From an uncultured Chloroflexia bacterium (GTDB lineage Bacteria > Chloroflexota > Anaerolineae > JAAYZQ01), in contig CAVOXA010000014.1 in the NCBI GenBank assembly GCA_963700285.1, positions 544,001-608,000 of the forward strand: a stretch of DNA of 64,000 bases. The letters are read 5' to 3'. Positions 17,559-44,712 of this stretch are shown here, in pieces. How positions within the stretch are numbered: the stretch's first letter is position 1; every line of letters begins with the position of its first letter. The translations under genes were made by a program, and so were the position numbers. Under the pieces are notes generated by a model that ran no database searches, was not told where the DNA came from, and saw only the letters and a program-made list of their open reading frames with translations.

Positions 17559-18833
17559 CTAGGACAGGGTAGCCCTCACAGTACCGGCAGCCGCAGCCAG
17601 GGCTTGGTCCACCAGCTCTCCCTGGGAGCCGCCGCCCTGGGCGAAATTGGGCCGGCCGCCGCCCTGGCCACCGATCGCTTCGCATGCCTGCCGCACAAGG
17701 GCACCCATGTTCGCGTCCAGGTCTTTGGAGCAAGCAAAGGTGAAATAGCTCTTTTCGCCCTGCTGGCCCCGACTCGCCAACAGGGCAACCGTCCCTGGCT
17801 GAGCGACCAGCCTCTGGGCCAGATGCTTGAGATCGTCCAGGCTGCGGCCATCATAGAGTCCCTGGACGATACGGACGTCTCCCGCAAGTTCTCCCGGGCC
17901 GGGTTGTTCCAACTGTAGAGGCTTTGCCTGATGCCAAAGCGCCGTCGATTCAGCATCCAAGCGCGCATCACGGGAGTGACGCAGAGCCCGACGGGTCTCC
18001 TTGAGTTCATCGCTCAAGCGGTGGATGGCATCAAGCAGCTCCCAATGCCCGACGGTGAACTCTTGGGCCAGCTCCATCACGGTGGCATTCTTGGCCTGAT
18101 AGTCGGCCAACGCCCGCCCTCCGCACAGGAACTCGACGCGGGTTTCGGTACCGCGCCGCTCGCTGCGCGTGATCTTGATGAGACCAACCTCACCCGTACG
18201 GCGGACGTGGGTTCCGCCGCAGGCAGAACAATCAAAGAGGGCAGTCGATGCCGAGTACGGATCGCCGCCGTCGATTTCGACGACGCGCACCGGGCCACCA
18301 TGGACCAGGGGTTTTCGCAAGGGCAGTGAGGCTATCTCTTCATCGGGCACGAACCGGGCCATTGCGCGCCGGTTCTCGAAGACGATGGCGTTGGCCAAAA
18401 GCTCAACGAGAGCCAGTTCATCGCTGGAAAGGGGGGCACGATCGAGGTCCAAGGTGGCATATTCGTTCGACAAGTGAAAACCGACCGTGTTGGCCCCCAA
18501 CTCCTGGACAAAGGCCGCGGATAGAATGTGCTGGCCCGTGTGCTGCTGCATCAAGTCAAAGCGACGGCCCCAGTCAATGGCTCCTTCAAGCGGGCCAGTC
18601 CCCAGTGATTGGGAGATGACGTGGACCACGGCACCATCGGACTCTCGCTCAAGCACGTAAACGACCTGGACCTCGCCTAGCATACCAGTATCATGTGGTT
18701 GGCCGCCGCCCGTAGGATAAAAAGCCGACCGGTCCAGTACAACTGCCGGATCTCCATTCCACTGGAGCTGCTCTATCACGTAGGCAGAGAAGCCAGTCTG
18801 ATATGGATCGTCATAATAGAGACGCTCTGTCAT
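17559..18833 (-). CDS. alaX: alanyl-tRNA editing protein AlaX-L with DHHA1 domain
   Basis: TERLYYDDPY, FYPTGGGQPHDTG, MQQHTGQHILS, CGGTHV, GGGRPNFAQGGG. Confidence 0.9.
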   Translation of the reverse strand: MTERLYYDDPYQTGFSAYVIEQLQWNGDPAVVLDRSAFYPTGGGQPHDTGMLGEVQVVYVLERESDGAVVHVISQSLGTGPLEGAIDWGRRFDLMQQHTGQHILSAAFVQELGANTVGFHLSNEYATLDLDRAPLSSDELALVELLANAIVFENRRAMARFVPDEEIASLPLRKPLVHGGPVRVVEIDGGDPYSASTALFDCSACGGTHVRRTGEVGLIKITRSERRGTETRVEFLCGGRALADYQAKNATVMELAQEFTVGHWELLDAIHRLSDELKETRRALRHSRDARLDAESTALWHQAKPLQLEQPGPGELAGDVRIVQGLYDGRSLDDLKHLAQRLVAQPGTVALLASRGQQGEKSYFTFACSKDLDANMGALVRQACEAIGGQGGGRPNFAQGGGSQGELVDQALAAAAGTVRATLS

Positions 18834-20929
18834 GCGCGACTCCTCCGGCGCCGGGGAGTACCACCTTTCGGTGCCGGTTTTTCAGTTGCCAGAAGTACAG
18901 CAATCGCTGCAACAATCACAGCCAGGACTGCAGCCATCAGCGCCCAGGTCCAGGGCGGGTGGATGCCGAAAAGCGGTGCCACCGTCCAGGCCATCCATAG
19001 CGCCAAGCCCACAAACACAAGCCCAGTGGCAAACTTGATGGTCGAGGTGTGGCGATTGAGGAATTGCCCAAGTTGCTGGGATGTTGTACCAAAGTAGCTC
19101 AGGGCAAAGACGACGATCAGGGGCAGGATGAACATCAGGCAATAGAGAACCAGGTAGACAAAGGCCTGAGAAGCCAGCTCGGGAACGCTCAAGACGAACA
19201 TGATGGTCGGAAGATAGACCTGTCCGGTACAGGCCAGCTCTAGCAAAGATACCACGAACCCGGTGAAAAATGCCATGGCCACAAAGGCACGGACCTGAGA
19301 ACCCTCGCGGATCACCTTGTTGATACGACGTCGCAGGTTCATGGGCAGCTTGAGCGCCATCTCGGAGGCCTCACCCTCGCGCACTTTGAAATAGTCGCGG
19401 AAGGTCAGGATGGCCAGCACTACGCACATCACTGCGGTGAGCAGGTACACCCAACGCCCCAGTGCCGTGAAAAAGCCGAGGGACTGTACGATCTTTAGCA
19501 ACCCTACACCAACGAGCAAGTAGGTCAGGAAAACCCCCAGCGCGAAGGCGATGCCCACGAACAAGATGTCGCGCCCCCGACGGCCGGTGAAAGTCAGGTA
19601 GGAGATGAAAAAGATCAGCGTAGCAAAGGCACAAGGGTTGAGCCCATCTATGAGACCCGCACCGAGCACTGTGAGGGCGCCAAAGGATCGAAAGCGCTCC
19701 ACCAAGCTCTGCTCCGCCTGGGACGCATCAAAATCATCCCAGGTGCGTTCTGCACCGGTCTGGGAGTACTGGCCCACCGTGGCCATCAGATTGTTGAGGG
19801 TGGCATCCGTGCCGATCAGGACATCCTGTCCGACAAAGAGCATGGGTGTGGAGAGGCGCTTTGCCTCCGGAACACCATACTTTTCGCTCATCCACTCGTT
19901 GAGCGTTTTGCTCTCTGCTTCCTCCATGGAAAAGCTTTCCACAACAAGCTGAGGGTACTGGCTCTCCACAACCTTTAGATCGTAGCTGGTACGCGCGCAT
20001 TCCTGGCAGCCGGCCTGCTCAAAGTAGGCCATATAGATGGGCTTCTCGTCGTTCGCCGTTGCCTCAGCCATCGCCTCGGTTGTCGCAGTTGGCTCCTCGC
20101 GGACAAGGCTGTCTACCAAATCCTCCCACTGTGGCAGACTAACACCCCCCTGGCCCACGTACCCCTCAACCAACTGGGGCAGCTGCGACTGTATCGCCGG
20201 GAGGCCGGTCAGAATCTGCCCGCCGACTACGATCTGTGGCGTACCTGGCGCAGGTCCATCGATGCCTAGCGCGGTATTGAGTTCGGCTAGCTTTTGCGCA
20301 TTCTCAGTTTGCGTGACGTCCGCAGCGTAGGGCTGGAGCCCGCCATATTCCAGGGCCAGGTCGGCGATCAGGTTGTTCAAGGCCTCAAAATCAGCGTGAT
20401 TCGGATCGTAAAAGACCAGCATCTGCACCGCTGGCTCCGGTGTCGGCAATACCACTTCTGGTAGATCGTCCAACGAGGGGTAATCGACGCCGCCCTGGGC
20501 CAGATATTCATCGATATAGGTCTCCAGCTTGCCGGGAATATCTACCGAGCCCACCAGCACTTTGTCGCCGATGACCAAGGCTGGCACCGCCCCCTGGCTT
20601 TCTTCCGGCACACCCAGCTTCATCTCTAGACCCAACAGGGTCAGGTACTTGTCGGTATCGCTCCAGACCTCAATATACTGATACTCTACCTGGTCGCCGT
20701 ACTTTTCATAGACCCCAGGCAGATAATCATCCATGACATCGTGGCAGTGAGGGCAGCTTTCCCCATAGAAAAGGAGGAACCGTACCACAGGCTGTTCCGC
20801 TTCGACCGTGCTATCCTGCGCTAGGGCCGTTGGGGCACCCACCAGGCACAGAACGAACATTCCCAGCGCAACGGTGAGCACCCACAAAGACGCCACCGCG
20901 TTCTTTCTCATCTGTGTCAACCTCTCCAT
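18830..20929 (-). CDS. exported thioredoxin/glutaredoxin-like domains fused to a CcdA/DsbD-beta transmembrane electron transporter
   Basis: Signal peptide; CPHC and CQEC motifs; DGLNPCAF and LELACTGQVY in the TM domain. Confidence 0.85.
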   Translation of the reverse strand: MERLTQMRKNAVASLWVLTVALGMFVLCLVGAPTALAQDSTVEAEQPVVRFLLFYGESCPHCHDVMDDYLPGVYEKYGDQVEYQYIEVWSDTDKYLTLLGLEMKLGVPEESQGAVPALVIGDKVLVGSVDIPGKLETYIDEYLAQGGVDYPSLDDLPEVVLPTPEPAVQMLVFYDPNHADFEALNNLIADLALEYGGLQPYAADVTQTENAQKLAELNTALGIDGPAPGTPQIVVGGQILTGLPAIQSQLPQLVEGYVGQGGVSLPQWEDLVDSLVREEPTATTEAMAEATANDEKPIYMAYFEQAGCQECARTSYDLKVVESQYPQLVVESFSMEEAESKTLNEWMSEKYGVPEAKRLSTPMLFVGQDVLIGTDATLNNLMATVGQYSQTGAERTWDDFDASQAEQSLVERFRSFGALTVLGAGLIDGLNPCAFATLIFFISYLTFTGRRGRDILFVGIAFALGVFLTYLLVGVGLLKIVQSLGFFTALGRWVYLLTAVMCVVLAILTFRDYFKVREGEASEMALKLPMNLRRRINKVIREGSQVRAFVAMAFFTGFVVSLLELACTGQVYLPTIMFVLSVPELASQAFVYLVLYCLMFILPLIVVFALSYFGTTSQQLGQFLNRHTSTIKFATGLVFVGLALWMAWTVAPLFGIHPPWTWALMAAVLAVIVAAIAVLLATEKPAPKGGTPRRRRSRA

Positions 20930-32022: not shown

Positions 32023-32214
32023 TTGACGTTTAAATTTTGTACTCTACTTTGATTCCCGCCGTACCCTACCCTCACGGCGGCCCAAGCGAGAATCACAGCT
32101 CCTGCGTTGTGAATTGAGGAACGCGGCTCGTGGAGCATTATCCGGCCTCAACTACCCTCGAGACGATAGCCACGACTCCAGATACGATTGCCCTGTTGGA
32201 AAACCGGCATCAGG

Positions 32215-32243
32215 TGGACAACGCAATCTGCTTGTGGTATACT
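32215..32243 (+). promoter_or_regulatory. sigma70-type promoter of the paired membrane-protein genes
   Basis: TGGACA-N17-TATACT with extended TG. It supports a start at GTG 32305. Confidence 0.55.
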
Positions 32244-32304
32244 GGCTCTGGTGGGTCGTCTGGAAACAGCTGTGGTGAAGAGCTCATGTGACTGGGGGCG
32301 AGGC

Positions 32305-34770
32305 GTGCAGATCAAGACCAGTCTACGGGTGCAGCAGGTCCTTGTTATGGGCTGTGGCCTGTTGGCCATGGCGCTCATCACCGGCAGTCTCGGCAACTTG
32401 AGCGGAATGCTCAACGGGGCACTGGCAGCCGGCAGCCTGCTGGCAGTGGCCCTGCTTGTCCCCTGGCGACGACGGGACATCCCACTCTGGCAGTTGGCGA
32501 TGGCGCTGGCGATCATGACCATCTCTCTGCCCATCACCGCCAGGGGCGGCGTTGTTGGGTTGATGGCAGCTTCCCTATTTTTCTTCGCCCTCTCCCTGGC
32601 AACCTCGGAAAAAAACTCTAGCATGGCAGATACGCTGATCCCCGCGGCCTTGCTCTTTGGCTCCTATTGGATCGCTGTCGAATATGTGCCCCTTGCCTGG
32701 CACAGCCAGCAAGCGCTGGCCATCAGCTTTTCCTGGCTCGCGGGATCCGGACTGAGACTCGGGCCCACGGCACTGGGCCTGCCGCTCCTGGTGCTATTCA
32801 CCTGCTACGCCCTGAGCGTTTTCCTCCTTTCCCTCCACCGGGAACCGCTACCCGGAACCGCGGGAGAAACCGGCGACCAAAGAAGGATCTGGCGCAGGTT
32901 GGGCGATCTGTTTGCATGGCTGCTGGCCCTGTTGCTGGCGGCCGTAGCCTACCTTTGGCTGCAGCCGCGCCTGGGAACCCTGGTACACGGCCTATGGCCT
33001 GCCTCCATTACCGCCTCGCCGGTACCGAGCAGCGCGCCTGACCTGACCTACCTAGCGTGGCTGCCGCTCCTGTTCCTGTTGCTGTGGCTGGTGTCTGCAC
33101 TGGCCAGCTTGTCCATGCGTCCAGCTCCACTGCGGCTGGGCCCACGGCCAGGAGCGGCCGGGTGGCTAGCCGCCGGACTGGCGCTGCTGGGCCTGGCAGC
33201 GGCCGTACTGACCCTCGAGCCCCCCTACCAGACGCGACGCGGAACCATTCTGTTCTACGATACCGGGCACCTGGAGTGGGGTCGCCCGGCCTTTGGCCAG
33301 TACGGCCCCCACAGCGGTGGCACCTTTGGTCTGTGGCCTGACTATCTGGCCGCTTTTGGCTATACGTCAAAGAGCGGCCTTTTGACGGCGCAAAACCTGG
33401 CGGAAGCCCAAGCCATAGTCCTGATCAACCTTCCCCAGAACCTCACAGACGGCGAAAAGGAGCGGCTACTGGCTTATGTAGCGTCTGGTGGCGCCCTCAT
33501 CATCTGGGGCGAGCATACCGGCGTGGGCCGCATCCGCGAGCCCATCAATGATCTGCTGGCTGGCCTGCCGGGCGCCCCCATCCACCTGCGCTTCGATTCA
33601 GCGGTACCTGTACGACAGGGTTGGGCGGAGGGGCTGGCGCTGCGGCCCCACCCGGCGACCCAGGGCATCCAGAACCCCATCGACCTGGTCATGGCCGTGG
33701 GTGCCTCGCTGCGCATCGAACCGCCGGCTGTGCCGCTCATCGTCGGGCGCTTTGGGCACTCGGACATGGGCGATGGCGGCAACCGCGCCCGCAACTATGT
33801 GGGTGACATGCGCTACAATCGTGGCGAGCAGCTGGGCGACGTTGTGCTGGGCGCCCAGCTTGCCTACGGCAGCGGACAGATCGTCGTGCTGGGCGATACG
33901 ACCCCCTTGGGCAGCGTCAATCTTATGACAGCCATGCCCTTTCACGCCCGCCTGCTCGACTGGGCCACGGCAGAGCGATCAGAAACCTGGGCTCTTTTTC
34001 TGCACAATGGCTGGCTGGCAGCTCTGCTGTTCGCCGGGGCCGCAGCTTGTTTGGTGGCCGGCAGGAGCCGGTTCGCCCTGGTCGCGGCGGCTCTGATATT
34101 GGGCTTGACCCTGACGCTGACGGGGAGGATCAATGCGGCCCAGAGTGCGCCAGTGAAGCCCCAGGGCGGCATCGCCTACGTCGATGTCTCCCACCAGGAG
34201 AGGTTCGACCGCTTGTTGTGGGAGACAACCTCCATCGGCGGGCTCAACTACAACCTGGCCCGAAACGGCGCCCTGCCATTGTTGCTCCACAAGATCGATA
34301 CTGACGCCCTGGACAGGGCAGACCTGCTGGTGGTCATTGCCCCAGGCGGCCGCTTTTCGGCGCAAGAGGTAGAGACCATCAACAGGTGGGTGAAGAAGGG
34401 CGGACAGCTTCTGGTATCGGCTGGCTTTGAGGAAAGTGAGGCCAGCGAGGCGCTGCTGGCGTCATTTGGCCTGGCGATCGGGCACATTCCGCTGGGGCCG
34501 GTCGAGTTGGAACGCGAGGCCGGTCCGGTCCGTTTCCACGAAGCCTGGCCTGTGAACGCCACGGACGAAGCAGCTCAGCCGATTGTGGAGGGCTATGGCT
34601 ACCCGCTGGCCGTCTACCAGCCGTGGGGAAGAGGAGGTGTGGTGCTCATCGGGGACTCGGCCTTCCTGCTCGGGGGAAGCCTGGAGGACCAATATTCGTA
34701 CCAGGAGGGAAACATCCTGCTATTGCGCGATATTCTGACCGACTACCTCGCAGTCGGAGACGCACCATGA
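32305..34770 (+). CDS. large polytopic membrane protein with two GATase-like (DUF4350/GldG-type) domains
   Basis: About 10 N-terminal TMs; AIVLINLP...LLAYVASGGALIIWGEHT...GQIVVLGDT; two TMs; LLVVIAP...RWVKKGGQLLV...GGVVLIGDS. Confidence 0.75.
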   Translation: MQIKTSLRVQQVLVMGCGLLAMALITGSLGNLSGMLNGALAAGSLLAVALLVPWRRRDIPLWQLAMALAIMTISLPITARGGVVGLMAASLFFFALSLATSEKNSSMADTLIPAALLFGSYWIAVEYVPLAWHSQQALAISFSWLAGSGLRLGPTALGLPLLVLFTCYALSVFLLSLHREPLPGTAGETGDQRRIWRRLGDLFAWLLALLLAAVAYLWLQPRLGTLVHGLWPASITASPVPSSAPDLTYLAWLPLLFLLLWLVSALASLSMRPAPLRLGPRPGAAGWLAAGLALLGLAAAVLTLEPPYQTRRGTILFYDTGHLEWGRPAFGQYGPHSGGTFGLWPDYLAAFGYTSKSGLLTAQNLAEAQAIVLINLPQNLTDGEKERLLAYVASGGALIIWGEHTGVGRIREPINDLLAGLPGAPIHLRFDSAVPVRQGWAEGLALRPHPATQGIQNPIDLVMAVGASLRIEPPAVPLIVGRFGHSDMGDGGNRARNYVGDMRYNRGEQLGDVVLGAQLAYGSGQIVVLGDTTPLGSVNLMTAMPFHARLLDWATAERSETWALFLHNGWLAALLFAGAAACLVAGRSRFALVAAALILGLTLTLTGRINAAQSAPVKPQGGIAYVDVSHQERFDRLLWETTSIGGLNYNLARNGALPLLLHKIDTDALDRADLLVVIAPGGRFSAQEVETINRWVKKGGQLLVSAGFEESEASEALLASFGLAIGHIPLGPVELEREAGPVRFHEAWPVNATDEAAQPIVEGYGYPLAVYQPWGRGGVVLIGDSAFLLGGSLEDQYSYQEGNILLLRDILTDYLAVGDAP

Positions 34771-37295
34771 ACTCTGTCCTGGCCTGGTTGAGCGTCTGGT
34801 CGCTGGCAACAGGCTGGCTGCTGCTTACCGGTTTTTTCCTGCCCCCCGATGGCAGGGGATGGGTCTTTGCGGGCTTTGGGATCCTGCTGGCAGTCTTGGC
34901 TGCGCGTAACACGCGCTGGCGGCGGGTCGATCCCTGGTTCTGCATTCTGGCGCCACCATTGGGGATTGCGTCCATCCTCTGGCCCTTCCCCTACCAGGCC
35001 GGTCCGCTGCTGGTTCTGGCTGGGTTGTTGGTCTCCCTGGGCCTGCGCCGCGCGCGTTGGCTCACCCCGCTCTGTCTGGGTCTATGCCTGACCGGCGCGG
35101 TGTGGATCGCTCAGGGCGGCGCTGTAGTGGCCTATTGGTGGTTGGGAGCCCGATACCACGAAGCCAATGCCCTCACGCCTGTGCTGTACTGGCTGAGCAG
35201 GGCTCTGGGCTGGACGGTGGGCAGCAGCCAGGGCAGTCTCTTCCTGCCCCACATCGAGGGCATGGTCCGGGCCACCACGACCTGGGAGCGCCTGGGCGCA
35301 CTGCCAGCCATGCTGTTGGGCGCTGGGGGTCTGATGCTTTTGCCACAGCTACTGCGGCGGTCAGCCCGCGATCTCTTGTTTCGGTTGTTCGCGGCTGGCA
35401 TCCTGGGAACCGGCTACCTGCTGCTCCGTTACCTGGTTCTGACCGCAATGGTAGCCATCAACAACAACCCCACGCTCTTCTGGCTGCCTCTGTCGATGGC
35501 CCTTACCTTCCTGCCCCTGGGCCTGCTGCTGGCCAGGGCGCTGCCCCTGCGTCCTGCTGTATCCGAGCCCGCTGCCCCTGACCGGCGCGATGCCGGCGGG
35601 CGTTACGTGGCTCTGGCGGGCCTGGCCTTCCTGAGCGGCATATCTGTCATCGCGTTGCTCACCTTCCCGGATCCGGGCAGACCAAAGGCGGGCCGGGTAC
35701 TCTTGGACGAGTACAATAGCAACTGGGAGTGGACTACCCAGGCCCTCGACACCGAGTGGTACGGCCAAAAGTCGGGCTACAACTACTACAGCCTGGGCCA
35801 GTGGCTCAGGTACTATTACCAGGTGGACACCAATTTCCGGCCGCGAACTCCAGAGATGTTGAGGAACTATGACGTGTTGGTCATCAAGACGCCGACAGCG
35901 CCCTTTGCCCCGGAAGAGATTGAGGCCATCACGGCCTGGGTTGGGGCCGGCGGCGGGCTCTTTCTCATCGGCGATCACACGAACGTGTTTGGCACCAGTT
36001 CCTACCTCAACCCCCTGGCTCGGCGCTTTGGGCTGCGCTTTCGCTACGATTCGACCTACGACCTGCCCACGCTGCGCGTGACCCAGTACGAGCGCCCTGA
36101 ACTGCTGGCCCATCCCGCCGTGCTGGAACTGCCGCCCTTTCTTTTCGCCACTTCCAGCACCCTTGAAGCGCCGCTTCTGGCTGGCAACGTGATGGTCGGA
36201 TATGGACTGCGAGCCCTGCCGGTCGACTATTCCAAGCGGGTGTTCTTTCCCGATAAGGAAAAGGAACAGGACTATCCCTTTGGCCTGTTCCTACAGTCGG
36301 CCAGCGTTCGCCACGGTCGAGGCCGGGTGGTAGCCTTTACCGACAGCACCGTCTTTTCCAACTTTACGATGTTTCTGGGCGGCAAACCCGAGTTCTTTTT
36401 GGGGGTGATGAACTGGCTCAACTACGCTGAACGCTGGCCCTGGCTGGACAGCGTTCTGGTAGCCCTGGCCCTGCTGACAGGTATTGGCGCTGTTGTCCTG
36501 GCGGGAACCCTGAACCGGCGGCGGGCCAGCATCGTGATTGGGGCCGTGCTGCTTCTTGCTGCAGCAATTGGACCCTGGGCCAGCCTGCAAGTGGCCGAGG
36601 CCAGATACCGTCTGCCGGATCCTCACAGGCAACCGATCAGTATTGCCTTTGAGGCCGAACACTCGCGCCTCCTGCTGCCCACCACTCCCGCCAGCGGGCC
36701 ACCAGAGGCCAGTTTCCAGACATTCTACGTCTGGACGCAGCGCCTGGGCTATGTACCTACCTTTGCCCCCACACTGGAAGAGGCGTTGAGAGCAGCCCAG
36801 GTCCTGGTCGTGATCGATCCCTTCAGGCCCTTTGATCCAACCGAGATTGAGGCCGTCAAGCAATTCATATACGACGGAGGGCGACTCCTCATGCTGGCAG
36901 AGCCCTCGGGCGAAGGTCCGCCGCCTATGGCAGGCGCCGATCTGCTGGCCCCCTTTGGGCTGGGCCTGGACGCACGCCGGCCAACGACGGGAGAGATCTA
37001 CAACACGGCTGGGGAGCGGCAGGGGCAGGTATTTGTGACGGGTGTAGTGAGCGGTGGAGAACCACTGCTCACGCTGGGCGGCCAGGCCCCAGTGGCAGCG
37101 GCGGCGCGCTACGGCGATGGACTGGTGGTCGCTGCCGCCTTTGCCCGGCCCTTTAGCGATGGGGAAATGGGCAGTACGGCAGTGGTTCCCAACGACCACC
37201 AGCGTTTTCTGTACGAGGTCGAGTTTTGGCTTCTACGTGGATTGGTGAGCGGCGAGTTCCCGCCACTGCGCAGGCCGGCCGGCGGTAGCCGGTGA
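34767..37295 (+). CDS. paralogous polytopic membrane protein with exosortase-like TM segment and two GATase-like (DUF4350/GldG-type) domains
   Basis: ATG 34767 overlaps the upstream TGA. YDVLVIKTP...WVGAGGGLFLIGDHT...GRVVAFTDS; QFIYDGGRLLML. Confidence 0.75.
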   Translation: MNSVLAWLSVWSLATGWLLLTGFFLPPDGRGWVFAGFGILLAVLAARNTRWRRVDPWFCILAPPLGIASILWPFPYQAGPLLVLAGLLVSLGLRRARWLTPLCLGLCLTGAVWIAQGGAVVAYWWLGARYHEANALTPVLYWLSRALGWTVGSSQGSLFLPHIEGMVRATTTWERLGALPAMLLGAGGLMLLPQLLRRSARDLLFRLFAAGILGTGYLLLRYLVLTAMVAINNNPTLFWLPLSMALTFLPLGLLLARALPLRPAVSEPAAPDRRDAGGRYVALAGLAFLSGISVIALLTFPDPGRPKAGRVLLDEYNSNWEWTTQALDTEWYGQKSGYNYYSLGQWLRYYYQVDTNFRPRTPEMLRNYDVLVIKTPTAPFAPEEIEAITAWVGAGGGLFLIGDHTNVFGTSSYLNPLARRFGLRFRYDSTYDLPTLRVTQYERPELLAHPAVLELPPFLFATSSTLEAPLLAGNVMVGYGLRALPVDYSKRVFFPDKEKEQDYPFGLFLQSASVRHGRGRVVAFTDSTVFSNFTMFLGGKPEFFLGVMNWLNYAERWPWLDSVLVALALLTGIGAVVLAGTLNRRRASIVIGAVLLLAAAIGPWASLQVAEARYRLPDPHRQPISIAFEAEHSRLLLPTTPASGPPEASFQTFYVWTQRLGYVPTFAPTLEEALRAAQVLVVIDPFRPFDPTEIEAVKQFIYDGGRLLMLAEPSGEGPPPMAGADLLAPFGLGLDARRPTTGEIYNTAGERQGQVFVTGVVSGGEPLLTLGGQAPVAAAARYGDGLVVAAAFARPFSDGEMGSTAVVPNDHQRFLYEVEFWLLRGLVSGEFPPLRRPAGGSR

Positions 37296-37305
37296 ACCCG
37301 GGGTG

Positions 37306-38307
37306 CTACGGCCGGTACTCCTGTACCAGCTCTGCCATCGCGGGATCGTCGGCAATGGAAGCATCCATCCACACCGATTGCCATTGTTCCCCACTGAGGC
37401 TGCCATCCGCCTCCAGGGTTACCTGCAGTCTGCCAACCCTCCGTCCCGAGTGCTGTGGACTCGCCTGCTCGGCAGTGACCACCAGCGTCCCGGTTTCGGG
37501 TGCCCGTACAGCGACCTCGGGCAGTTGCCCAGGCAGAGCCGCGATGACCAGGTCAATACCCGCAACTTCCTGTGCCAGGGCCAGCCCAGCGCGATAGGTG
37601 AGGTTGGTCAGGACCACGACGGTATCTGCCTCTTTGGCCATCTCGGGTAGATATTGGGCCGCCGCTTCCTGCGGATCAAGGACTAGAAAGCCGTCGAGCG
37701 GCTCAGAGGGCAGCCGGGTCAGGCCGAGCACGCCCAGGCGGTGGTCGCCAACATCCAGGACCGTGTAGGGTTGGGTCAGCAACTCGCCGGTAGCGCTCAG
37801 CACTACGTTGGCCGACAGCACTGGAAAATCAGCCTCCCCCAATCGCCGGGTTAGCTTCTCGGCCCCCAGTTTCAGCTCCTGCGGGCCCAGGGCCATGGCA
37901 TCGTAGCTCATCATGTTCATGCCGGCGACAATAACTTCACCGTCCGTGAGGTCGCCAAGCCAGCCGCCCCCACCCAGAGCGTCACCGGTGTCGAGCAGGA
38001 GAAGATGCTCCGCGTCCGCTTCCTGCTGCTTCAAGTAGGTGGCTCGCCGGCGGAACCCGCCGGTAGAGTTTTTTCCTCAGCCGCAAGGCTCCGTCTCCCC
38101 CCAATTGTCGTTGGTATGGAGCACCAGCAATTGCGAGGGCGTCACCGGCGCCGTGGGGAAAGACTCGACAAGCGGGGAAGTGTATCCGCCAGATGCTGCG
38201 GCAGCGCCAGGCCCGTCAGCCTCAGGTGCCAACGCCCCGCAGCCTGCGGCCAACAGACAAAGGGCCAACAGCACAAGTACCGAGGATCTGCGAAAATGGT
38301 TGAACAT
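37306..38307 (-). CDS. UshA/5'-nucleotidase-like lipoprotein; selenoprotein with CxU motif (UGA at 38077-38079 read as Sec)
   Basis: ORFs 38077..38319 and 37306..38034 are in the same frame, separated by one TGA and 14 sense codons: LLVLHTNDNWGETEPCG-U-GKNSTGGFRRRATYLK...LLLLDTGD. Lipobox LAAGC. SECIS-like hairpin follows. Confidence 0.85.
38043..38079 (-). other. Sec UGA codon and bacterial SECIS-like stem-loop
   Basis: TGA GGAAAAAA CTC TA CCGGCGG GTT CCGCCGG C GAG: a perfect 7-bp GC stem with a G-initiated apical loop 20 nt after UGA and a lower CTC/GAG stem. Confidence 0.8.
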
Positions 38308-38315
38308 GGTCCCTC

Positions 38316-39419
38316 TCAAGCATTTTGGTCCCCCTCACCCCCGGCCTTTCGGCTGCGCAACAGGAGCCAGAGCGCCACGCCCGCCAACACCAGACCGACC
38401 AGGAGGGCTCCGACCGAGACGAGCAGCAGTAGCGGTCCCAGGGTTTCGTCCTGACTGCTGGCCGGCCCAGCGACCGCGCCCTGCCCTGGGCCCGTTGTAG
38501 GCACCAACCTAGCCTCCAGTTCAATGGTCGGCAGGGGTGTTCGAGTGGGCAACGGCGTGATGGTTGGAGGCGCTGGCGAAGGGGTACTCGTCCAGGTAGC
38601 GGTGGGCGACGGCGTTGGGGTCTGAGTGGGCGTGGGTGTGGGTGTGGCCGTTTCGGTAGGCGCCGGCGTTTCGGTGGGCGTCGGAGAAGGCGGAACCGCG
38701 GTGGGCGTCTCGGTCGGCGGCGCCGGAGTCGGGGTCTGCGTGGGCGGCCGGCGCGTCGGCGTGGGTGACGGGATTGGCGTCACGGTCGCCGCCGGCTGGT
38801 TCGGGTCGGGCCACAGACCCACAGCATCGACAAAGATCCAATCGTTGCCGTACGTGGTCGGATGATCGGTCCAGACAAACACGGTCATGGTTGGCCCTGT
38901 GGCTCTGGCCGAGACGGTCAGGTCGGGCCAGGAGTTGATCCCCCGTTCGGAGGGGCCCCATACCACCGTGGGTGCAAGAGGATCGGTGCCGCCGGTGGGA
39001 TCCAGGCCAAGTCTGCGCTCAAAGTTTGGTTGGGTAACAGCCGCCCAGCCCGCGTCTGTCTGGTATACGACGCCGGGCGTCACCCCGACCTGCTGGTAGA
39101 TGCCGCCCCGAAAGGGCACACCATCCGACAGCAGCCACAGGGACGGCGCCCCCCAGTAGGTATCAATGGAGCTGCGGAAATCCATGTTTCCGGCCAGAAT
39201 ATAGGGCTCCCAACCGTTGGGGACCTGTAGTTGCTTGCCCTGGTAGTCACGACCAGAAAAATGATCGAAGCCGCAGTTCTGGGTCAGGTTGCCGGGTTCC
39301 AGGCAGGGGTTTCTAGCCCCCGCCCTGGAAAGCACGGGCCTAAAGGTTAGTACCACCAAGGTCCCGAGCAACGCCCAGATACCCCAAACGATCAAGAACC
39401 TGTTATTCTTTGCGCTCAT
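38316..39419 (-). CDS. cell-surface protein: signal/TM, beta-sandwich (CBM-like) domain, Pro/Thr-rich stalk, C-terminal TM anchor
   Basis: ATG 39419 preceded by extended -10 TGCTATACT. NLTQNCGFD...VPNGW...GGIYQQV...GLDPTGGTDP; (PT)n linker; TM followed by RSRK. Confidence 0.75.
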   Translation of the reverse strand: MSAKNNRFLIVWGIWALLGTLVVLTFRPVLSRAGARNPCLEPGNLTQNCGFDHFSGRDYQGKQLQVPNGWEPYILAGNMDFRSSIDTYWGAPSLWLLSDGVPFRGGIYQQVGVTPGVVYQTDAGWAAVTQPNFERRLGLDPTGGTDPLAPTVVWGPSERGINSWPDLTVSARATGPTMTVFVWTDHPTTYGNDWIFVDAVGLWPDPNQPAATVTPIPSPTPTRRPPTQTPTPAPPTETPTAVPPSPTPTETPAPTETATPTPTPTQTPTPSPTATWTSTPSPAPPTITPLPTRTPLPTIELEARLVPTTGPGQGAVAGPASSQDETLGPLLLLVSVGALLVGLVLAGVALWLLLRSRKAGGEGDQNA

Positions 39420-39600
39420 TGTCGACTCGTGCTGGCTTGGCCCTCCAGCGCGGCACAGTATAGCAAAGGGAACCTGAAAAGTCAAAGCCGGATCCTCTTC
39501 GCGGGAATGACAGGTGAGCTTGGGCAGTGTTTCCACCGAAATCGATACTCCACCCTCCGGGACGGTTCTTTGCGCACGGCGACAGCTATGGTACAATGAG

Positions 39601-43200: not shown

Positions 43201-44712
43201 ATGTCGCGGAAAATGTTGCTGAGCATCCTGAGTTTGATGGTCGTCCTGGCCATGCTGGCCGGCTGTGGAGCTGCGCCAGAGCCGGAGACCATCATCCAGA
43301 CCGTTGAGGTCGAGAAAGAGGTTGTCAAGGAAGTTGAAAAGGTCGTCACCCAAGTGGTCGAGGTCGAAAAAGAGGTTGTCAAGGAAGTTGAAAAGGTCGT
43401 CACCCAGGTGGTCGAGGTCGAGAAAGAGGTGATGGTCGAGGTCACCCCGGCGCCAGAGTTTATGGAGGACGTCACCCTGGTCTACTGGAGCGATCCCCGC
43501 TTCACCCTGGTCAAGGGCAAAGAGGACCAGACCCAGGTGATTGGTGACTATGAGATGCTCCTGGCCGAGCAGTTTATGGAGATGTACCCCAACGTCACCA
43601 TCGAGGTCGAGGCCCTGCAGTGGGCTGACCTGTCCACCAAAGTGACGGCTGCCATCGCCGCCGGCGCCCCGCCAGACGTCCTCAAGGACTACCTGGGCCG
43701 TACCTCCGGCTATGCCTGGCAGGATCTTCTGGAGCCGATGGAGGAACTGGTCCCGGCTGCAGAGCTGGAGGACTATTTGCCCGACTTGATCGACCAGTAC
43801 ACCATCAACGGCCACTTGCACGGGCTGCCGATCTTTTACTGGATCACGGCCATGTCCGGCAACAAGGCCATCTGGGATGCGGCCGGCGCCACCGACCTGC
43901 TGCCGCTGGACGACGGCGAGTGGACCTTTGAGGAGTTCGAGGCCGCCCTCAAAGCCGTGCAGAAGGAGGACGAGCTCTGGCCGTTGGGCCTGCAGGTTGC
44001 CTCCGAACAGGGCGACTATATGTACCTGGCCTATCCATGGGGCATGGGCGCCACCCTCTACCCGCCGGGCGACTATACCGTCTCGGCGCTCAACAGCCCA
44101 GAGGGCGTAGCTGGTGTGCAAAAGATCGTAGACTGGGTGGAGGCGGGCCTCATCGAGCCGGGCGCGACCACCATCATCGGCGACGATCTGAACAACATGT
44201 TCTACGCCGGCCAGACGGCCATCATGGGCAACAGTCTGGCGGCCAAGACATCGCTGGATATCGCCAAGCAAGAGGGACGCGTACCGGCAGAAGTTGACCT
44301 CTTCTTCACCATGTTCCCCCACGCCGAGGGCGTCAAGACCGGAGCCATGGCTGCCGGCCCCACCGGTGTCGTCGTCTTTAAGCAGGAGGATCCGGCCAAG
44401 CGCTACTGGGCCGCCCAGTTTGCCCGGTTCCTGGCCAGCCCCGACCTTCAGCGCGAGTACGCCGTCAACGCCAACCAGTTCCCCTCCCGCAAGTCGGTCG
44501 GCGTACCGCTGGCCGGCGACCCCGACTATGAGAAGCTGCTGGCCTGGGTGCAGGAATACGGCCTCAGCGACATGGGCCTGGCATCGCCCAACTACTATGA
44601 GATGCGGGTGCAGCTCTTCCCGCAGCTCCAGGCCGCCATGCTGGGTGAAAAGACCGCGGAAGAGGCCCTGGCTGACTATGAAGCGGCCGCCAACGAAGTC
44701 CTGAGCCGCTAG
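43201..44712 (+). CDS. carbohydrate ABC transporter substrate-binding lipoprotein
   Basis: Lipobox LAGC; FMEMYPNVTIEVE, IAAGAPPDV, GHLHGLP, WTFEEF; AAGGAGGAG RBS. Confidence 0.9.
   Translation: MSRKMLLSILSLMVVLAMLAGCGAAPEPETIIQTVEVEKEVVKEVEKVVTQVVEVEKEVVKEVEKVVTQVVEVEKEVMVEVTPAPEFMEDVTLVYWSDPRFTLVKGKEDQTQVIGDYEMLLAEQFMEMYPNVTIEVEALQWADLSTKVTAAIAAGAPPDVLKDYLGRTSGYAWQDLLEPMEELVPAAELEDYLPDLIDQYTINGHLHGLPIFYWITAMSGNKAIWDAAGATDLLPLDDGEWTFEEFEAALKAVQKEDELWPLGLQVASEQGDYMYLAYPWGMGATLYPPGDYTVSALNSPEGVAGVQKIVDWVEAGLIEPGATTIIGDDLNNMFYAGQTAIMGNSLAAKTSLDIAKQEGRVPAEVDLFFTMFPHAEGVKTGAMAAGPTGVVVFKQEDPAKRYWAAQFARFLASPDLQREYAVNANQFPSRKSVGVPLAGDPDYEKLLAWVQEYGLSDMGLASPNYYEMRVQLFPQLQAAMLGEKTAEEALADYEAAANEVLSR
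43303..43431 (+). repeat. 54-bp in-frame tandem repeat (about 2.4 copies) encoding VEVEKEVVKEVEKVVTQV
   Basis: Units start at 43303, 43357 and 43411. Confidence 0.9.

Follow-up and report, generated by a model that had tools for sequence, protein, structure and literature searches.

A probable selenocysteine-containing lipoprotein of UshA-like fold in an uncultured Chloroflexia bacterium and its candidate redox partner

Two consecutive open reading frames lie on the minus strand of the window (the whole stretch of 64,000 nt analyzed here), separated by a single TGA. Is this TGA read as selenocysteine (Sec), and if so, what might a surface protein resembling 5'-nucleotidases do with such a residue? 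The sequence-only reading had joined the two frames into one gene, and this is indeed what is observed: the frame runs from 38307 to 37306 (–), comprises 333 residues and is split at codon 77. The features of the locus are as follows.

37306..38307, minus strand: predicted UshA-like (metallophosphoesterase-fold) selenoprotein gene, 333 aa with the TGA read as Sec
38239..38253, minus strand: lipobox LAAGC (residues 19–23), preceded by a hydrophobic signal stretch, with Cys23 as the predicted site of lipidation
38083..38085, minus strand: Cys75, first residue of the C-G-U motif, retained by 37 of the 38 homologous loci
38077..38079, minus strand: predicted selenocysteine, in-frame TGA at codon 77, the sole internal stop of the 333-codon frame
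38047..38063, minus strand: SECIS hairpin CCGGCGG-GTT-CCGCCGG, its loop G lying 20 nt past the UGA

The TGA codon and its hairpin

The TGA is preceded by HTNDNWGETEPCG and followed by GKNSTGGFRRRATYL, that is, the motif reads P-C-G-U. The hairpin downstream has a perfect 7 bp stem and a 3-nt GUU loop, and the 40–50 nt after the UGA fold with an energy of –16.0 kcal/mol; coordinates, spacing and fold agree with the G-first loop 20 nt past the UGA that had been noticed in the sequence. The bacterial SECIS criteria given in PMC13188914 are a loop of 3–9 nt with G in the first two loop positions, a stem of 4–16 bp, a spacing of 16–37 nt and an MFE of at most –7.5, and the window hairpin lies within these limits on all four counts. 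Both sides of the TGA belong to one domain, as had been suggested: the match to the NF041198 family spans residues 56–303 across the stop, and the AlphaFold model is one fold. The product is a single-domain protein, without C-terminal nucleotidase or heme domain; a lipobox-like pattern is present in 25 of the 38 homologous loci.

The UGA-bearing gene is found in 32 of 61 related genomes, homolog names pointing to Anaerolineae, and each of the top 32 listed places in these genomes, the window included, has one TGA. A comparison of homologs at the codon-77 column had been proposed earlier, and at this column the TGA is kept in the top 32 places and is otherwise Cys. The single-domain Cys homologs have CGC (P0135, P0150, P0161) or CAC (P0160, L156), and the Cys-form locus L156 fails the hairpin proxy described below. 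CxxU variants are also found among the homologs (L069, L146, L147, L159), and in one ortholog (L027) Arg replaces Cys75.

In 16 same-family loci, the modal-codon frequency of the hairpin codons 82–87 is 0.94–1.0, compared to a mean of 0.62 for 75 other conserved codons, of which one is invariant; judged by this codon usage, the hairpin codons are synonymously frozen. Moreover, a strict SECIS proxy, which re-implements the criteria of the model and is distinct from bSECISearch, is passed by 33 of 38 distinct homologous UGA loci and by 152 of 1778 (8.5%) arbitrary TGA triplets of the window. Distant loci have a different G-loop hairpin, shifted a few bases further on. In four Logan contig sets of patchy cover, P-C-G-TGA next to the same hairpin is found in two contigs that stem from relatives, and none of the sets contradicts the TGA; two of the four sets are RNA libraries, which is no evidence of transcription. 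The best 120 protein-database homologs listed are 201–272 aa long and cover 60–76% of the query. Pieces of this length are the expected outcome if gene callers cut at the UGA, in line with the earlier suggestion that annotation misses or splits the gene.

The complete set of selA, selB, selC and selD, expected elsewhere in the genome by the sequence-only reading, is present above the cut-offs: tRNA-Sec (Rfam cut-off), intact SelA, and SelB and SelD, the latter two frameshifted as assembled and SelD itself having an in-frame TGA. The assembly is prone to such breaks: frameshifts are seen in 7 of the 40 conserved genes tested, and EF-G-, LepA- and TypA-like frames break early. As these test genes are also broken, and as the SelB frame of a same-genus genome, 654 aa long, is unbroken, we infer that the selB and selD frameshifts are indel errors of the assembly. 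Because of the many frameshifts (e.g., C10:2126954 in selB, C9:56688 in selD, and the sites L015–L017), split-gene findings elsewhere in this genome need care. A SelA or SelB match accompanies the UGA gene in all 32 genomes that carry it (30 SelA, 28 SelB), and the four genomes without either match also lack the gene.

Thus, the gene is almost certainly a real selenoprotein gene, and the TGA at codon 77 is very likely read as selenocysteine, given the same TGA in the top 32 places, the frozen hairpin codons and the Cys homologs at this column; none of the three refuting conditions named by the sequence-only reading was encountered. It is very improbable that no full-length selenoprotein is formed here, be it through a TGA that acts as a genuine stop, through an assembly error or through loss of Sec insertion in this organism: the selB and selD frameshifts and the position of this organism's codon 77 outside the coverage of the four Logan sets would fit such a case, but it is opposed by the recurrence of the TGA in 32 of 61 genomes, the freezing of the hairpin codons, the uninterrupted SelB frame of the same genus, the frameshifts that strike 7 of 40 unrelated conserved genes as well, and other typical Sec motifs in the genome.

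Fold, lost nucleotidase site and known families

The AlphaFold model of residues 58–333 has a pLDDT of 94.4 and matches 5'-nucleotidase N-domains with TM of 0.87 for the top matches. With UshA/CD73 proteins (PDB 1ush, 2z1a, 6xue) it has in common the N-terminal metallophosphoesterase fold (TM 0.83–0.88 over the query), and the HTND and DxGD motifs are common to the window protein, UshA/CD73 5'-nucleotidases and the SoxB thiosulfohydrolase. Unlike the UshA/CD73 5'-nucleotidases, which have a 5_nucleotid_C domain, the window protein lacks it, with no Pfam match to the C-terminal substrate-binding domain PF02872.

The nucleotidase motifs DxH, GD, GNH, H and GHxH, which we take to comprise the dimetal ligands and the catalytic His, were mapped in 38 loci by comparison with two intact nucleotidase paralogs of the same genome. 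Of these loci, 37 retain the first Asp (Asp67) and 21 the GD Asp (position 109), with Asn in 14 more. The LTH His is kept in 11 loci, the DxH His and the GGH His in one each, and the GNH Asn and His in none. In the window protein only Asp67 and Asp109 are retained out of the dimetal ligands: the DxH His is changed to Trp69, GNH to Gly-Pro142-Gln143 and the LTH His to Asn235, while GGHSH is lost. Out of 38 loci, 37 end 268–313 aa after the domain start, and the remaining one is shortened by a frameshift. A C-terminal extension frameshifted off in the window was considered and rejected, as the stop is conserved across homologs. With neither the catalytic His nor the C-terminal domain, the protein is probably not active as a nucleotidase. 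The earlier label "UshA-like" therefore stands for the fold and fails for the activity, the nucleotidase metal site and the C-terminal domain being gone.

Selenoproteins of this general kind are already catalogued, and the heme-less single-domain form is a variant. In PMC2398784, "COG0737 UshA-like, CxU", known since 2008, is represented by 76 sequences in GOS and is counted as a major marine selenoprotein family without a recognized redox motif; the UshA-like CxU family also appears in a list in PMC9312934, and the families NF041198 and NF049981 (family 2) in PMC13188914. UshA is absent from the main text of PMC13326102 (BSepDB), while the database itself may hold these genes.

The best family match of the window protein is NF041198 (UshA_like_PCGU, 3.5e-42), with which it shares PCGU after the first metal motif, the UshA N-domain fold and predicted export. 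Its score is 144.7 bits compared to the cut-off of 275, and the match covers positions 20–272 of 519. Among the 61 related genomes none passes this cut-off (no Anaerolineae ortholog does); out of 16 proteins tested it is passed by three, all heme-bearing with four CxxCH. The passing proteins carry a C-terminal tetraheme c554 domain, whereas the window protein has no heme motif and stops after residue 333. The window protein is related to NF041198 and works like it, yet it is a non-member by the curated test, as its score is below the cut-off. The other family, NF049981 (UshA_like_Sel_2, CxxU, 262 positions), also comprises short UshA-like selenoproteins, and its motif recurs in the CxxU variants among our homologs; the window protein, which has CxU, scores 43.1 bits compared to a cut-off of 140, with only positions 3–98 matched.

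In a quick domain tree, all 42 CxC/CxU-type domains, those of the proteins passing NF041198 included, are split from 13 canonical nucleotidases by a starred branch, and the window protein, six Cys forms and the fusion protein P0223 fall into one starred heme-less subclade. Nearly everything that a search for longer homologs yielded was a canonical nucleotidase, with a single heme/DsbA fusion. No separate c554 partner was found in the genome by tblastn with four heme-domain queries. Fifteen other frames of the genome carry at least three CxxCH, and nine frames with 3–15 CxxCH heme motifs are clustered at C1:550640–585482.

Neighboring genes and the candidate redox partner

The selenoprotein gene is preceded by a co-oriented gene and by a promoter-like sequence.

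38316..39419, minus strand: upstream gene with a predicted exported galactose-binding/DUF642-like domain, likely the first gene of an operon
39457..39485, minus strand: sigma-70-like promoter match TTGACT-17-TATACT with TG, a consensus match only, preceding both genes

The upstream protein has an N-terminal C-x(12)-C pair, a Pro/Thr stalk and a C-terminal membrane anchor; it has no Pfam or NCBIfam match, and its Atlas score with DUF642/galactose-binding domains is 0.94. Of the 15 same-family loci, 11 have the gene directly upstream of the Sec gene, as do three other-family loci; in the remaining same-family loci it is about 6 kb away (one), the contig ends (one), or the gene is absent (two). 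Two weaker paralogs are found at C1:721929 and C10:956274. The promoter search returned one match with 0.3 expected.

Clustering of neighborhoods in the window's own family identified no conserved redox gene. On the other side of the Sec gene and convergent with it, at 32188–37295 (+), are two tandem genes of ~850-aa membrane proteins, DUF4350/GIFT-like, present in only 2 of 20 relative loci. Further away, the ORF 43201–44712 encodes a sugar-binding lipoprotein in which the lipobox is followed by repeated EVEKEVVKEVEKVVTQVV units (~43246–43370, +).

A candidate redox partner is encoded in the same window, 17 kb from the Sec gene.

18830..20929, minus strand: candidate redox partner, 699 aa, with thioredoxin-like domains (CPHC, CQEC) and a CcdA/DsbD-like membrane domain

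Its membrane domain has two Cys motifs, DGLNPCAF and ELACTGQVY, conserved across orthologs, and the nearest Atlas clusters are CcdA, DsbD_TM and SfLAP (scores 0.90–0.94). The membrane part has no Pfam match at E 0.1, DsbD_TM included, and the CcdA-like assignment is based on the Atlas feature scores and the conserved Cys pair. This architecture resembles that of CcdA/DsbD/ScsB proteins, where, according to PMC3322552, two conserved membrane cysteines stand beside outer thioredoxin-like domains; the partner differs from them by its N-terminal thioredoxin domains, and no DsbD-alpha domain is recognized in it.

Several homologs carry further domains in the same chain. In P0209, P0164, P0262 and P0136 the CxC/CxU domain is joined to tetraheme c554, and P0136 also has DsbA-like domains. 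In P0223, P0225 and P0248 it is fused to a CxxC domain and a CcdA-like membrane domain, and the C-half of P0223, a protein that groups with the window protein in the starred heme-less subclade, is 52% identical to the product of window positions 18830–20929.

The partner gene adjoins the Sec gene in three genomes (G023, G038 and G052), and in a fourth one (G062) the order is partner gene (Trx-TM), thioredoxin, CcdA (DsbD_TM, 1.5e-27), CxxU Sec gene. This amounts to 4 of 42 located Sec-gene places, from four different families, none of them the window's own (neighbors were read by eye, and nine selected proteins compared with Pfam). In 38 one-per-family genomes, both genes are present in 15, only the Sec gene in one, only the partner in three, and neither in 19 (Fisher p 1e-6, kinship ignored; 6e-6 without the four Sec-less genomes). 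Genome size does not differ between the groups (p 0.35) and does not explain the co-occurrence. A tree-aware test is not significant, with only two independent pairs, too few to reach significance, on well-supported branches of the rpoB tree (2 of 36 branches starred; G046 dropped, G021 outside the pair test). In a sample of 200 genomes of the phylum, the Sec gene is present in four, the partner in four and both in two. Complex prediction for the Cys form L156 of G024 with the membrane-proximal thioredoxin domain of the same genome yielded 0.37, 0.00 and 0.07 at a mark of 0.32, controls unfolded; these scores count neither for nor against a contact.

The G023 locus has some further features. 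An Fe-S-cluster protein (L142:9253–9801, –), whose frame continues across TGA codons close to the C-terminus, is encoded between the ArsR gene and the Trx-CcdA-like gene; the gene after the Sec gene, which has no Pfam match, presumably resembles YqeB. A second Sec-gene paralog of this genome (L153:6856–8241) is located tail to tail with selA.

Proposed function and other Sec genes of the genome

With moderate confidence, we suggest that Cys75 and Sec77 form an extracytoplasmic thiol/selenol redox site that is re-reduced by the thioredoxin–CcdA-like partner. SelB would read the hairpin and insert Sec77, and the protein, lipidated at Cys23, would become a surface lipoprotein, where the Cys75–Sec77 pair would cycle between the selenenylsulfide and the reduced form. 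The electrons would be supplied by the outer thioredoxin domain of the partner, which in this respect may fill the role of the fused tetraheme domain in the long family members; the targets could be oxidized or mispaired cysteines of surface proteins, e.g., the co-transcribed upstream product. In the CcdA/DsbD class, a pair of membrane cysteines relays electrons from the cytoplasmic thioredoxin to a thioredoxin domain on the outer side (PMC3322552).

The redox site is favored by the fusions of the CxC/CxU domain to c554 hemes, DsbA-like domains or CxxC and CcdA-like domains, by the retention of Cys75 in 37 of 38 loci while the metal ligands are lost, and by the P0223-type fusions, the adjacency in four genomes and the co-occurrence in 15 of 38. 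Against it are the tree-aware test, the distance of 17 kb with adjacency in only 4 of 42 places, the presence of both genes in only 2 of 200 genomes of the phylum sample, and the lack of a Pfam match for the membrane part of the partner. Moreover, the commonest neighbor is the carbohydrate-binding-like upstream gene rather than a redox gene, one ortholog (L027) has Arg for Cys75, and the assembled selB and selD carry frameshifts.

If the Cys75–Sec77 redox site is real, the whole may constitute an undescribed envelope redox relay of Chloroflexota, from cytoplasmic thioredoxin via a multi-thioredoxin CcdA-like transporter to a Sec lipoprotein that uses a dead nucleotidase fold as its scaffold; we put this forward tentatively. 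It is likewise conceivable, with the same reserve, that the UshA-like CxU domain is a non-thioredoxin-fold oxidoreductase module, served by hemes in the long forms and by the CcdA-like transporter in the heme-less ones. Such a relay, if true, would supply a selenoprotein family whose function has been unknown since 2008 with its first partner and with an assay. Through the link to the partner, the function of the family can be tested in vitro on two soluble domains, and the natural Cys forms need no Sec recoding. Among the titles and passages listed on UshA-like and Chloroflexota selenoproteins, neither a function nor a CcdA-like partner is mentioned, and we found no paper joining CcdA/DsbD and thioredoxin with selenoproteins.

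The redox site has two competitors. In the first one, which we regard as unlikely, the protein would be a remodeled hydrolase or sulfur-transfer selenoenzyme, Asp67, Asp109, Cys75 and Sec77 forming a new single-metal or nucleophile site that acts on a thiosulfonate, persulfide or phosphoester, SoxB having the same fold. In favor of such a site, 37 of the 38 loci retain Asp67 and 35 have Asp or Asn at position 109; the predicted fold is intact, and SoxB (TIGR04486) is matched at 1.5e-18. The catalytic His and the GNH Asn, however, are retained in none of the 38 loci and vary freely, the substrate-binding C-terminal domain is absent, and the recognized fusion partners of CxC/CxU domains among these homologs are all redox domains, except DUF1573/Ig-like and LysM.

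Soft metals are bound by thiol/selenol pairs, and Cys-Gly-Sec could accordingly bind Cu, Hg or As at the surface, to scavenge or to sense metals or metalloids, the partner only keeping the pair reduced. The Sec gene and the partner of G023, which follow an ArsR-family regulator and the Fe-S protein, would suit such a role, but the ArsR context is confined to this one locus, metal transporters and resistance genes do not recur in the neighborhoods, and the heme fusions point to electron transfer; we consider this second competitor improbable, even more so than the hydrolase.

Apart from the UshA-like gene, the genome contains other likely Sec genes. A genome-wide UGA scan returned 135 candidates, mostly chance, which were read by eye. 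Nine further likely Sec codons were picked from it, also by eye, at C1:1101108 (+), C1:1070216 (–), C5:106440 (+), C5:248560 (+), C7:68812 (+), C9:167613 (–), C10:238873 (+), C14:727076 (–) and C22:134598 (+); their motifs are, presumably, thioredoxin-, glutaredoxin-, peroxiredoxin-, DsbA-, HdrA- and GrdB-like.

One more set is comprised of [NiFe] hydrogenase large subunits with N-terminal Sec, found in this genome (C9:235799–236359, L210/L211) and at L212–L214 and L218–L220. Their class, uptake-type, is taken from the best matches NF007550 and NF007778, which are below the cut-off. The N-terminal motif is RICGVU in this genome and three relatives, and RIUGVU (UxxU) in three loci read, while the C-terminal motif, DPCMAC, is normal. 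In the accessible text of PMC13582414, UXXU is called previously unrecognized, in Group 4, and only two Group 1 cases of N-terminal CXXU are cited. Out of 29 hydrogenase places, eight have one TGA, 13 have two and eight have none; the Sec loci share a hairpin, and the Cys forms differ there.
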